NCBI GenBank assembly: GCA_041664165.1
Contig: JBAYLH010000004.1
Location: 11,974 to 75,973, forward strand
Length of the DNA stretch: 64,000 bases
Direction: 5' to 3'
DNA from: Candidatus Buchananbacteria bacterium
GTDB lineage: Bacteria; Patescibacteriota; Patescibacteriia; Buchananbacterales; UBA6539
The translations under genes and the position numbers were made by a program. Positions 19,027 through 22,872 of the stretch are shown in pieces. A model generated the notes under the pieces. That model did not search any database, was not told the DNA's origin, and worked only from the letters and a program-made list of their open reading frames with translations. Each line of letters opens with the position of its first letter. The first letter of the stretch is position 1.

Positions 19027-19820
19027 GTCCAAGTAAGCTAGATGATCGCCCCCCACTTTCTATGTTCTATGTGTATGTTCTAAAACTTAATAACGGCAAA
19101 TTGTATTTCGGATATACTAGCGACCTTCAGCGTAGAATTAAAGAGCATACTAACGGTGAATCAACCTTTACAGCGAGTTGCAGGCCATTAAAATTAGTAT
19201 ATTACGAAGCCTATAACTCAAAAGAGGATGCCCAAAAAAGAGAAAAAGTATTAAAACAGTTTAAGGGTAGCTATGGTCATTTGAAAAAACGCATCCAAAA
19301 AAGTATTGATAGAAAATAGAAATTAGAAAGTGGGGGGAGGAAAGTCCGAACACCACTAGCGGTAGCTCCTAACGGGAGCCGAGAGCAACAAAAGAATAGA
19401 AGCGCTTAAGACTTCTGGACTTTTGCCAAGCTTAGGGCAAGTGCAACAGAAAATATACCGCCCCCCACCTTCTGTTCAACATTAGTGATTTAAAATCACT
19501 TAAGTGAGCGAGGCGGTTCCGCCTTACTATATTCATTGATCTAAAAGATGATGACTAGAAGGTGGGGGGTAAGGTTGAAAACGTGGGCCCGCCTTCGCGC
19601 GGGATAATCCGCTTCGCCATCTTGGCTTCGGCGGAAAAAGTAAGAGCCCACGCACGACAGACTGGTGACAGTCGGTGTGGTAAACTCCTGCCTGGTGCAA
19701 TGCCAAATTTGGTCGGCAGCACGAGCCTAATGGCAACATTAGGCCAAGATAGATGATCATCTCCCCCACTTTTTTAAAAAATGGGGGAACAGAATTCGGC
19801 TTACCGGCTTGCTTGGACAA
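19027..19820 (+). ncRNA. rnpB: RNase P RNA (bacterial type) with large insertions in P3, P12 and J2/4
   Basis: P1 GUCCAAGUAAGC (19027-) pairs with GCUUGCUUGGAC (19807-19818). P2 AGAUGAUC pairs with GAUCAUCU. P4 5' strand AGGAAAGUCCG at 19338. Conserved AGUGCAACAGAAAAUAUACCGCC, GUAAGAGCCCACGCACG, GGUAAACUCCUGCC...GCCAAAUUUGG, and P4 3' strand ACAGAAUUCGGCUUA at 19790. These match the E. coli M1 RNA landmarks recalled from memory (GGAGGAAAGUCCGG, GUGCAACAGAGAGCAAACCGCC, GUAAGAGCGCACC, GGUAAACUCCACC, ACAGAACCCGGCUUA). Confidence 0.8.
19062..19319 (+). CDS. GIY-YIG nuclease-family small protein (YhbQ/UPF0213-like), encoded inside the rnpB P3 loop
   Basis: 85 aa MFYVYVLKLNNGKLYFGYTSDLQRRIKEHTNGES...; pattern YVYVL..NGKLYFGYT.DL.RR..EH matches the GIY-YIG core. 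Flanked by CCCCCCACTTTC (19049-19060) and GAAAGTGGGGGG (19326-19337). Confidence 0.65.
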   Translation: MFYVYVLKLNNGKLYFGYTSDLQRRIKEHTNGESTFTASCRPLKLVYYEAYNSKEDAQKREKVLKQFKGSYGHLKKRIQKSIDRK

Positions 19821-21154: not shown

Positions 21155-22872
21155 TTCTTGTTAATTCTCAAATCGACAATCTTTAGCTGCAACTCCCGGT
21201 TGCCATTCCATTCATTAACATCCACTTCGAAAATCATATCAACTTTATCCCCCACCTTTAATTTCGCACACCAATCACCAAAACAAAAACCAATGGTTTT
21301 GCGGATTATCGGCGTGGTATGTTTAACCATCAGCCGGAGATGTTTGCCATCCTGGCCCAAAGTCTGCATTTCCGCGACCGTCAGATTTTGCGCCAGAAAC
21401 CGCGGCTTGGGATTGCCTTCACCGTAAGGCGGAAATTTTGCCAATTCCTCAAATAATTCCCAATTAACCTGCTCTAGTTTTATTTCAGCGTCAATCTCTA
21501 AAATCGGCTTAAGATCTTTGCCGGTTAGTTCCGCTTCGGCTAATTTAGTCATGGCCTGGATAAAAAGTTCAAGGCTCGGTTCATCTTTAAGGGTAAAGCC
21601 AGCGGCCTGGCCATGACCGCCATAACGGGTTAAATACTGGTCGCATTTTTGAATCGCTTCGATAATATTAAATTCAGGGATACTTCGACCGGAGCCGATA
21701 ATTTCGCCGTTGTAGCGGCTGATTACCAAACTCGGGCGGTTAAATTCATCGGTAATCCGGCCAGAAACTAAACCGACAATTCCGGTCGGCCAGTCCGTGC
21801 CGACAATGGCCAAAAATTTTTGGTCTTTAACCGAGCCTAAGATTTCCTTGGCCGCCGCCGTAATTTTTTCCGTCAGCTGCTGGCGCTGAGTATTGGTTTG
21901 GTTTAATTCTAAAGCTAATTTTTGAGCTTCCTCTACTTGGTCGGTAATCAAGAGTTGATAGGCCGAACTGGCGTGGTTGAGCCGGCCGGCCGCATTGAGC
22001 CGCGGCGAGATTTGCCAGCCAACCACTCGTTCGTCAATCACGGTCAAGTTATTACTCATTTTTTCAATTAATTTCAAAAGGCCGAGCCGCTTGGTTTTTT
22101 GCAAAACAATTAAACCGTACTTAACTAAAATCCGATTTTCGGCAAGCAACGGCTGCATATCGGCAATGGTGGCAATTGCCACTAAATCCAACAGCCATTT
22201 TTCAAAACCGGTCTCGAGCTGATTGACCTTAAAATCCTTTTGCTTTTTGGTAATCGCCTGGGCTAGTTTAAAAGCCACGCCGCAGCCGCATAAACCCCGG
22301 AAGGGATAGGTTTCTTTTTCAACATTCGGATTGATAATAGCAAATGCCTCGGGTAAAATTTTTGGCTGGTGGTGGTGATCGGTAACAATCACTTCTACCC
22401 CTTTTTGATTTAGCAAGTCGATTTCTGTTTTATTGGAAACACCGCAGTCAACCGTAATCAATAATTTTGTCCCTTTGGCGGCTAATTCGGTTACCGCCTC
22501 AATATTTAAACCATAGCCTTCGGTTTCCCGGTAAGGGATATAAACATCAGGCTTGCCGCCCAAACCCCGTAAAAGCTCAACGAGTAAAGCCGAGGAGCAT
22601 ACCCCGTCAGCGTCGTAATCGCCGTAAACAACGATTTTTTCTTTGTTTTCTATAGCCGTTAAAATCCGATTGACAGCCTTTTCCATCTCAGTAAATAAAA
22701 ACGGATCAGAAAGATTTTTTTCGTATTCCGGGTTTAAAAAATCGTCAATGTTTTGCTGAACATTCAGTCCTCGGTTAAACAGCAGCTGCAAAACAATCGG
22801 ATTAATTTCGGGAAAATGGTTGAAATCCGACTCTGCCAACCCTGGTTTTACTTCCCATTTTTTTTCTAGCAT
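21151..22872 (-). CDS. recJ: single-stranded-DNA-specific exonuclease RecJ
   Basis: 573 aa; DHH motifs VVYGDYDADGVCSSALL, ITVDCGVSN, VIVTDHHH; C-terminal OB region. Confidence 0.85.
   Translation of the reverse strand: MLEKKWEVKPGLAESDFNHFPEINPIVLQLLFNRGLNVQQNIDDFLNPEYEKNLSDPFLFTEMEKAVNRILTAIENKEKIVVYGDYDADGVCSSALLVELLRGLGGKPDVYIPYRETEGYGLNIEAVTELAAKGTKLLITVDCGVSNKTEIDLLNQKGVEVIVTDHHHQPKILPEAFAIINPNVEKETYPFRGLCGCGVAFKLAQAITKKQKDFKVNQLETGFEKWLLDLVAIATIADMQPLLAENRILVKYGLIVLQKTKRLGLLKLIEKMSNNLTVIDERVVGWQISPRLNAAGRLNHASSAYQLLITDQVEEAQKLALELNQTNTQRQQLTEKITAAAKEILGSVKDQKFLAIVGTDWPTGIVGLVSGRITDEFNRPSLVISRYNGEIIGSGRSIPEFNIIEAIQKCDQYLTRYGGHGQAAGFTLKDEPSLELFIQAMTKLAEAELTGKDLKPILEIDAEIKLEQVNWELFEELAKFPPYGEGNPKPRFLAQNLTVAEMQTLGQDGKHLRLMVKHTTPIIRKTIGFCFGDWCAKLKVGDKVDMIFEVDVNEWNGNRELQLKIVDLRINKK

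Follow-up and report, generated by a model that had tools for sequence, protein, structure and literature searches.

Palindromic modules with shared arms in helices P3, P12 and P19 of a Patescibacteria RNase P RNA gene that encloses a GIY-YIG open reading frame

Palindromic or repeated sequences lodged in bacterial genes have been met in several settings. The Rickettsia palindromic elements (RPEs), reportedly described by Ogata et al. in 2000-2002, are short palindromes that occur genome-wide, both in frame in protein genes and in RNA genes, where they are tolerated as a protein loop or a peripheral hairpin, and they have no associated nuclease gene. Repetitive extragenic palindromes (REPs) and REPINs are hairpin repeats accompanied by a RAYT nuclease gene that is flanked by them; RAYTs are HUH/Y1 enzymes, and REPINs number hundreds per genome. 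The intervening sequences (IVSs) of 23S rRNA are removed by RNase III. Vioque is said to have found, in 1997, short tandemly repeated repetitive (STRR) sequences inside helix P12 of cyanobacterial rnpB, and Brown et al. reportedly described, in 2015, insertion sequences in rRNA genes of the candidate phyla radiation (CPR). A catalogue of CPR rRNA-gene insertions includes GIY-YIG open reading frames (ORFs) in non-intron insertions at stem-loops and does not mention rnpB (Tsurumaki et al. 2024, PMC11270868), and diverged CPR RNase P RNAs carry large helix extensions and fall below the Rfam cut-offs (Lui et al. 2021, PMC8172020). Here we analyzed the RNase P RNA gene, rnpB, in a 64-kb stretch of a Candidatus Buchananbacteria genome (contig JBAYLH010000004.1, positions 11,974 to 75,973; the window). 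The gene (19027-19818, plus strand) contains three CCCCC(C)AC...GTGGGGG palindromes, in helices P3, P12 and P19.

On balance we lean, by a small step, toward the reading that the P12 and P19 stems have been re-written, and P12 also extended, by a family of DNA-level palindromic modules with arms of the form C5-6AC.../...GTG5-6 (C5AC modules). Across about 60 related genomes these modules appear to have been gained, lost, copied between helices and, once, copied into a protein gene, which suggests that they behave like a small mobile-element family; we are less confident that a nuclease has a role in their spread. The features of the window gene are as follows.

19027-19818, plus strand: RNase P RNA gene (type A); RF00010 at 141 bits over 19323-19819, 5' part from the P1/P2 inverted repeats and sequence reading.
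19027-19038 and 19807-19818, plus strand: P1, an inverted repeat.
19040-19047 and 19755-19762, plus strand: P2, an inverted repeat.
19049-19061, plus strand: P3 5' arm, CCCCCCACTTTCT, from sequence reading and inverted-repeat search.
19062-19319, plus strand (sense to rnpB): GIY-YIG (UPF0213-type) ORF of 85 aa in the P3 loop, from PF01541, PDB 1zg2 and homologues in the rnpB of relatives.
19325-19337, plus strand: P3 3' arm, AGAAAGTGGGGGG, followed directly by the P4 5' strand AGGAAAGTCC, from sequence, Rfam alignment and inverted repeats.
19461-19473, plus strand: P12 5' arm, CCCCCCACCTTCT, the first ~8 nt of which align with the canonical P12 stem, from sequence, Rfam alignment and inverted repeats.
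19474-19556, plus strand: P12 interior, 83 nt, 36% GC, with three small hairpins and no homologue in related loci, from folding and similarity search.
19557-19569, plus strand: P12 3' arm, AGAAGGTGGGGGG, followed by the J12/13 sequence TAAGGTTGAAAA, from sequence, Rfam alignment and inverted repeats.
19763-19787, plus strand: helix P19, the J2/4 hairpin CCCCCACTTTTTT/AAAAAATGGGGG, a near-perfect zero-spacer palindrome with C19769 unpaired, from sequence, Rfam and folding, with the P19 position taken from PMC12974513.
19789-19803, plus strand: P4 3' strand, ACAGAATTCGGCTTA, from sequence and Rfam alignment.

The Rfam match covers only 19323-19819, and the start of the gene was placed at 19027 because P1, P2 and the P3 5' strand all lie upstream of the P3-loop ORF. 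A preliminary description of this DNA had reported a perfect 13-bp P12 stem around 83 AT-rich nucleotides with hairpins of their own, and this was found exactly as claimed: P12 folded at -53 kcal/mol (z -7.3), and the interior alone formed its three hairpins at z -4.7. The 25-nt P19 palindrome was also as described, near-perfect and without a loop between the P2 3' strand and ACAGAA (19789-19794), except that it begins at 19763 and not, as given, at 19764; the hairpin at 19760-19790 folded at -13.1 kcal/mol (z -2.4). The arm motif said to be shared by the three elements, in the form CCCCCACYTT, occurs six times in 64 kb against 0.35 expected, a 17-fold enrichment reached in 0 of 100 shuffles, and five of the six copies lie inside rnpB. 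Apart from those of P3, P12 and P19, the window has no C5-run palindromes. The 3' end of the P3 cassette (19308-19330) carries the tandem heptamers TAGAAAA TAGAAAT TAGAAAG directly before TGGGGGG, which are mirrored by CTTTCTA TGTTCTA at the 5' end (19056-19069) and give two alternative pairing registers. The rnpB sequence of the window was found identical in four assemblies. Contigs L003 and L004, from independent Logan assemblies of the same organism, both end 16 nt past the P3 3' arm (window 19353), possibly through strain variation or a repeat-induced break.

For comparison we used related loci (L numbers); a species-level scan for GTGGGGGGAGGAAAGTCCGA returned 65. Nearly all of the 65 are from Patescibacteria and include Parcubacteria/Paceibacteria, Saccharibacteria, and Doudna-, Falkow-, Yonath-, Nomura- and Zambryski-bacteria. 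Insert sites were assigned by sequence anchors in Python, since an Rfam scan at the gathering threshold found only two (L044 and L054) of ten insert-bearing rnpBs and missed the other eight, all with large inserts (L019, L027, L033, L036, L039, L049, L053 and L069). C5AC.../...GTG5 palindromes were seen at P3, J5/7, P12, P15/16 and P19 and in the rnpB 5' leader or 3' trailer, and they were empty (20-35 nt, often with zero spacer), filled with 40-100 nt of AT-rich cargo, or filled with an ORF. Many empty modules are perfect zero-spacer palindromes, such as the P3 of L042 (CCCCCCACCAAT running directly into ATTGGTGGGGGG), and this is a property at the level of DNA, not of RNA. At P12, empty C5AC modules were found in L014, L050 and L069, modules with cargo in the window, L044 and L054, and ordinary stems in L005, L007, L009, L012 and L067. 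The window P19 hairpin had been taken for a cargo-less version of the palindrome around the GIY-YIG ORF, and the same arms do occur at P19 both without cargo (window, L007) and with it (L009, L027, L039, L044), but the interiors show no trace of the GIY cassette.

The arms differ between genomes more than between helices. The P19 of L007, CCCCCCACTTTC-TAT-GAAAGTGGGGG, matches the P3 arm of that genome, and CCCCCACAC is present in four helices of L044; CCCCCACCAC in L069, L054 and L039 is a further example. Among the 7 nt that follow CCCCCAC, 4.7-4.85 matched between different helices of one genome and about 3.0 between genomes, whether in the same or a different helix (permutation 0/10000, p<1e-4). 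As judged from these matches, the stem sequence tracks the genome and not the helix. Extra C5AC hairpins were present in 12 of 26 rnpBs with a GIY-YIG ORF and in 4 of 40 without one (odds ratio 7.7, p 0.0012).

Three comparisons speak for turnover at the level of DNA. L012 and L014 encode an identical GIY protein and differ by 2 single-nucleotide polymorphisms in about 690 nt, yet the entire P12 hairpin has been exchanged (GCCGCCGTCGCTCAAGCTATGGCGAGC in L012, TCCCCCACCTTCAC-TTTT-GTGAAGGTGGGGGG in L014). The L012 allele, which is not of the C5AC type, is present in three independent assemblies, and the sister species L050 has the C5AC type. In L036, J5/7 holds a 97-nt paralogue of that genome's own P3 module, arms and interior included (76-79% identity, E 2e-8 to 5e-11), which is missing from its sister L053. 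Finally, L033 has a 69-nt palindrome with the P3 arms of its own genome (CCCCCCACTAA...) in frame in recJ, at +1426..+1495, about 1.4 kb downstream of the rnpB P3 3' arm. This module adds about 22 aa that are absent from the RecJ encoded in the window; in-frame insertion in a protein gene besides RNA genes, as in RPEs, was thus seen in this relative and not in the window itself.

The window recJ contains a lone CCCCCACCTT half-site (21249-21258, minus strand, codons KVGD), which drew attention because a relative has a full recJ module; its partner arm was not found there, and it is probably a coincidence.

The P3 ORF matched PF01541 (E 1.5e-15) and the UPF0213 structure PDB 1zg2 (E 1.6e-10), and it belongs to the small stand-alone UPF0213 type. 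All the close homologues that were examined, at 63-78% identity, are likewise housed in the P3 helix of an rnpB. In all, about 23 species, drawn from several classes of Patescibacteria, have an ORF of 85-90 aa in P3, in the sense orientation in every case, and in about 40 P3 is empty. The ORF resembles a homing gene in that it stands at a fixed site of a conserved gene, a site that is filled in some relatives and empty in others. It does not have the architecture of the homing endonuclease I-TevI, as the 85-aa protein consists of the UPF0213-type catalytic domain only, without a joined DNA-binding domain. Some copies in the rnpB of relatives are degenerate. Because the intact ORFs showed dN/dS of 0.03-0.16, indicating strong purifying selection, and synonymous sites are saturated between species, substitution patterns mark the ORF as a long-maintained resident and not a decaying homing gene. 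A phage origin was rejected; the sole viral match is distant (48% identity) and does not lie in an rnpB.

Other GIY-YIG ORFs flanked by such palindromes, which the preliminary description had proposed to look for, were found in relatives with similar arms at P3, at P15/16 and 5' of tRNA-Cys; the cassette measures 285-299 nt between arms in all three settings. In L036 (+273..+562), L053 (+213..+502) and L069 (+217..+506), numbered from the P3 3' arm, the cassette is found not in P3 but in the P15/16 arm, with 289 nt between CCCCCACCAC/GTGGTGGGGG arms. At the same site L042 has an empty C5AC hairpin and L077 an ordinary GC hairpin with a GCAA loop. In L200 (1480-1840) a cassette with a more distant GIY-YIG homologue and CCCCTCAC arms stands directly 5' of tRNA-Cys, and a 10-nt direct repeat of the 5' end of this tRNA lies upstream of it. 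L202 (1350-2010) has another more distant homologue between two tRNA-Met genes, the second of which is abutted by a C5AC palindrome, and L205 (1-330), a viral contig, has a distant homologue beside an apparent tRNA 3' half. With modules beside tRNAs and in recJ, the elements, supposed earlier to target this RNA gene, do not target it alone.

Both window hairpins outside P3, which had been described as insertions, turned out to be natural helices of RNase P RNA. The P12 hairpin lies between J11/12 (ACAGAAA..ACCG) and J12/13 (GUAAGG.UGAAA). The RF00010 alignment puts the pairing of ACCGCCCCCCAC with GUGGGGGGUAAGG in the P12 columns and models the rest of the palindrome as a loop insertion; the basal part of the palindrome is thus an ordinary, canonical P12 stem. 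RF00010 places the third element (19763-19787) in the J2/4 columns, and it is a hairpin that stands between the 3' strands of P2 and P4, which is where P19, a known helix that varies in length, stacks on P2 and is sporadically lost, is found (PMC12974513). J2/4 had been described as normally only a few nucleotides long, and this is true of E. coli-type RNAs; in the related lineage, 41 of the 54 rnpBs with a parseable 3' part have a hairpin there and 13 have a 2-5 nt linker, so that a hairpin at the P19 site is the rule and not an anomaly. The 41 hairpins measure 14-158 nt, are unrelated in sequence and all fold with z<-2 (median -5.7 against shuffles). P12 and P19 are accordingly re-stemmed or extended natural helices and not insertions in naked junctions.

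Several results weigh against a family of mobile modules and bear on its strongest competitor, which holds that these are ordinary lineage-specific helix expansions whose stems converge on C-run/G-run for stability in an AT-rich genome, or are kept alike by one RNA-binding factor, without DNA mobility and with the ORF as an unrelated passenger in P3. The Rfam consensus of both P3 and P12 is already a C-run/G-run stem, so the first ~8 nt of the shared arm are generic. The window P19 is shared with the nearest relative, L067 (CCATCACTTTT-AGA-AAAAGTGAGGG), from which it differs by one compensatory C-G to U-A change and single mismatches; because this hairpin was kept despite saturated synonymous sites in the ORF, it is old and constrained as RNA. 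On the same facts, the J2/4 copy is not a fresh palindromic scar. It had also been foreseen that conservation of the extended hairpins with covariation would make them structural expansions of the lineage; P19 shows its one compensatory change relative to L067, and the P12 of L067 is ordinary.

The interiors and the genomic distribution also tell against the mobile reading. The window P12 interior has no relative in any related locus or elsewhere in the window. Smith-Waterman comparison of this interior with the GIY cassette against shuffles gave z <= 1, and a hidden Markov model search of six-frame-translated interiors for GIY-YIG gave a best E of 0.03; with neither DNA nor protein similarity found, we rejected the idea that the interiors are decayed GIY-YIG ORFs or deletion derivatives. 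Direct repeats that would mark target-site duplications were not found around the rnpB copies or the L033 recJ copy, and only L200 has its 10-nt repeat. Within the 64 kb available for the window genome the palindromes are confined to rnpB. The identical second hairpin of L069 is next to a stretch of N and may have come from faulty assembly. Moreover, every comparative locus was selected by its GTGGGGGG P3 3' arm, and the arm-similarity permutation and ORF-association tests were made without phylogenetic correction.

By the usual marks of a miniature inverted-repeat transposable element (MITE), the P12 and P19 arms do match those flanking the GIY-YIG ORF, as terminal inverted repeats shared with a putative autonomous partner would, but target-site duplications, interiors derived by deletion and many dispersed copies were all wanting (three copies in 64 kb, all in rnpB). 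The proposal of a palindrome-delimited, nuclease-associated family therefore survives in part: it has in its favor the patchy distribution, the P12 swap, the L036 paralogue, the genome-specific arms, the GIY enrichment and the recJ copy, whereas a MITE-like origin by deletion is unsupported.

We nevertheless regard structural expansion without mobility as an unlikely account of the whole. Besides the frequency of P19 hairpins, the Rfam consensus and the inherited P19, it can draw on the strongly structured P12 interior and on the report that CPR RNase P RNAs typically have large helix extensions (Lui et al. 2021, PMC8172020). It gives no reason to expect identical sequences in separate helices of the same genome, the whole-hairpin swap between L012 and L014, a paralogous module with a homologous interior in L036, or the same arms around an in-frame recJ insert and next to tRNAs, nor does it predict perfect zero-spacer palindromes, which RNA cannot use as such.

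Less probable still is that the stems are RNA processing signals, cleaved by RNase III or by the encoded GIY-YIG protein, so that the P3 ORF loop and the P12 interior are cut out to leave a fragmented, base-paired ribozyme, the arms being alike because one enzyme reads them. In its favor, every cargo is bounded by perfect stems of 13-22 bp; the ORF, strongly conserved and without exception in the sense orientation, goes together with extra C5AC hairpins; and RNase III has been proposed to cleave IVS-type insertions in the rRNA genes of CPR (Tsurumaki et al. 2024, PMC11270868). Cargo-less hairpins such as the window P19 and the L014 P12 need no excision, however, and the in-frame recJ copy and the strain-level swap are left unexplained. 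To our knowledge, moreover, all characterized GIY-YIG enzymes are DNases. A chance likeness of three GC-rich stems is effectively refuted: CCCCCAC alone is not enriched in the window (6 vs 4.4 expected) and similar palindromes are common in unrelated metagenome contigs, but the 10-mer is enriched and confined to rnpB, and many related genomes repeat the pattern, with extensions that are particular to the genome.

For the family of palindromic modules, we infer a mechanism in which the master copy would be the P3 hairpin that encloses the small UPF0213-type GIY-YIG gene. Its arms, with or without interior cargo, would be copied between hairpin-coding sites by break-induced gene conversion or by template switching on short C-run/G-run homologies, plausibly triggered by the encoded nuclease if this is structure-tolerant and cuts palindromic (hairpin- or cruciform-forming) DNA. 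Copies would survive only in positions that the ribozyme tolerates, i.e., P3, J5/7, P12, P15/16, P19, leaders and trailers, and in the RNA they would form long, stable, ordinary helices, with P19 and P12 retaining their structural role.

More tentatively, the UPF0213-type GIY-YIG gene and the C5AC palindromes might constitute an autonomous/non-autonomous pair, a new bacterial mobile element analogous to RAYT/REPIN with a structure-specific nuclease. Such a pair would live in stable-RNA genes (RNase P RNA helices and tRNA leaders), use their promoters, and spread by cutting hairpin or cruciform DNA, with the arms copied into other helices. If true, this would be the first biological role for the widespread, uncharacterized UPF0213/YhbQ family.

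A few further observations concern relatives, other elements and the motif itself. In L067 the P4 3' strand (+407) reads ACAAAATTCGGCTTA and not the universally conserved ACAGAA, perhaps through an error of sequencing, perhaps through a genuine substitution in the core. We rejected the idea that the S-domain is mosaic or recombinant with respect to L067, since identity is simply lower throughout that domain, and P0003, considered as a closer relative, turned out to come from the organism of L067. Helices of rnpB also host another insertion family, unrelated to the first, which consists of CCATTGC-TTCG-GCAATGG, AT-rich repeats of the ccaaat/aattc type and then CCACTGCGGAGCAGTGG; it occurs twice in one gene in L027 (+47..+210 and +465..+625) and in P12 of L066 and L076. 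The GIY ORF of L027 is split by a nested gtcattcc...ggaatgac element. J2/4 (P19) elements of 119-158 nt are present in L018, L042 and L058, and those of L018 and L042 open alike (GTCAGTGC / GCCAGTGC, then GCACTGACCGC). An element of 141-144 nt with AACCCGCCCCCCATTAAT arms lies directly 3' of rnpB in L036 and L077 and is 82% identical between them. A metagenome scan for CCCCCACYTT-N(0-30)-AARGTGGGGG returned at least 120 loci. Among the matches listed, none was near rnpB, five were within 200 nt of a tRNA or tmRNA, and the palindromes were unrelated REP-like or terminator palindromes of other organisms; the bare C5AC motif is not diagnostic, and the scan is uninformative for this lineage.

If modules of this kind are as mobile as we suppose, the peripheral helices of RNase P RNA, a textbook conserved ribozyme, would be a habitat for selfish or semi-selfish DNA, with a protein gene inside P3 and sister hairpins re-writing P12, P19, P15/16 and J5/7. 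The copying of palindromic modules would then be a route to the "expansion segments" of structured RNAs, and the locus a natural system for learning the function of small stand-alone GIY-YIG (UPF0213) nucleases. The inserts would also account for many Patescibacteria rnpB genes escaping standard annotation, which will report such genomes as being without RNase P RNA because the Rfam gathering scan misses insert-rich rnpBs.

Full-text searching of the literature brought up no account of GIY-YIG genes or of palindromic modules within the rnpB of bacteria. The CPR RNase P RNAs already reported (PMC8172020; PNAS 2026, PMC12974513) have extra sequence at the same positions, a hairpin between the 3' strands of P2 and P4 and an extended P12, and the failure of detection is the same as in our ten-gene scan; these reports treat the extensions as structural variation, without palindromic stems shared between helices, a P3 ORF or gain and loss between strains. 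The CPR rRNA insertions are alike in phylum, in having a stable-RNA host gene, in their position at the tops or bases of stem-loops, in carrying GIY-YIG ORFs outside group I/II introns and in including short ORF-less insertions that were proposed to be IVS-like. They differ from the present case in that here the host is rnpB, the ORF-less hairpins have the same arms as the ORF cassette, and the ORF itself is not sparse but of long standing and strongly conserved. As with IVSs and STRRs, a stable RNA carries extra sequence on the lengthened stem of a helix that tolerates it, and P12 of rnpB is a known landing site for repeats, but STRRs are tandem heptamers and not palindromes with a nuclease partner. 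As with REPINs and RAYTs, palindromic hairpins accompany one nuclease gene, which they also flank, but the enzyme is of the GIY-YIG/UPF0213 type and there are 2-4 copies, almost all in one gene. The L033 recJ copy resembles RPEs in its behavior, as an in-frame palindromic module; unlike RPEs, the modules are concentrated in and near a single ribozyme gene, and a GIY-YIG ORF lies within one of them. Altogether, and by analogy, the rnpB modules are a variation on known kinds, namely RPE-like elements and the insertions of CPR stable-RNA genes.

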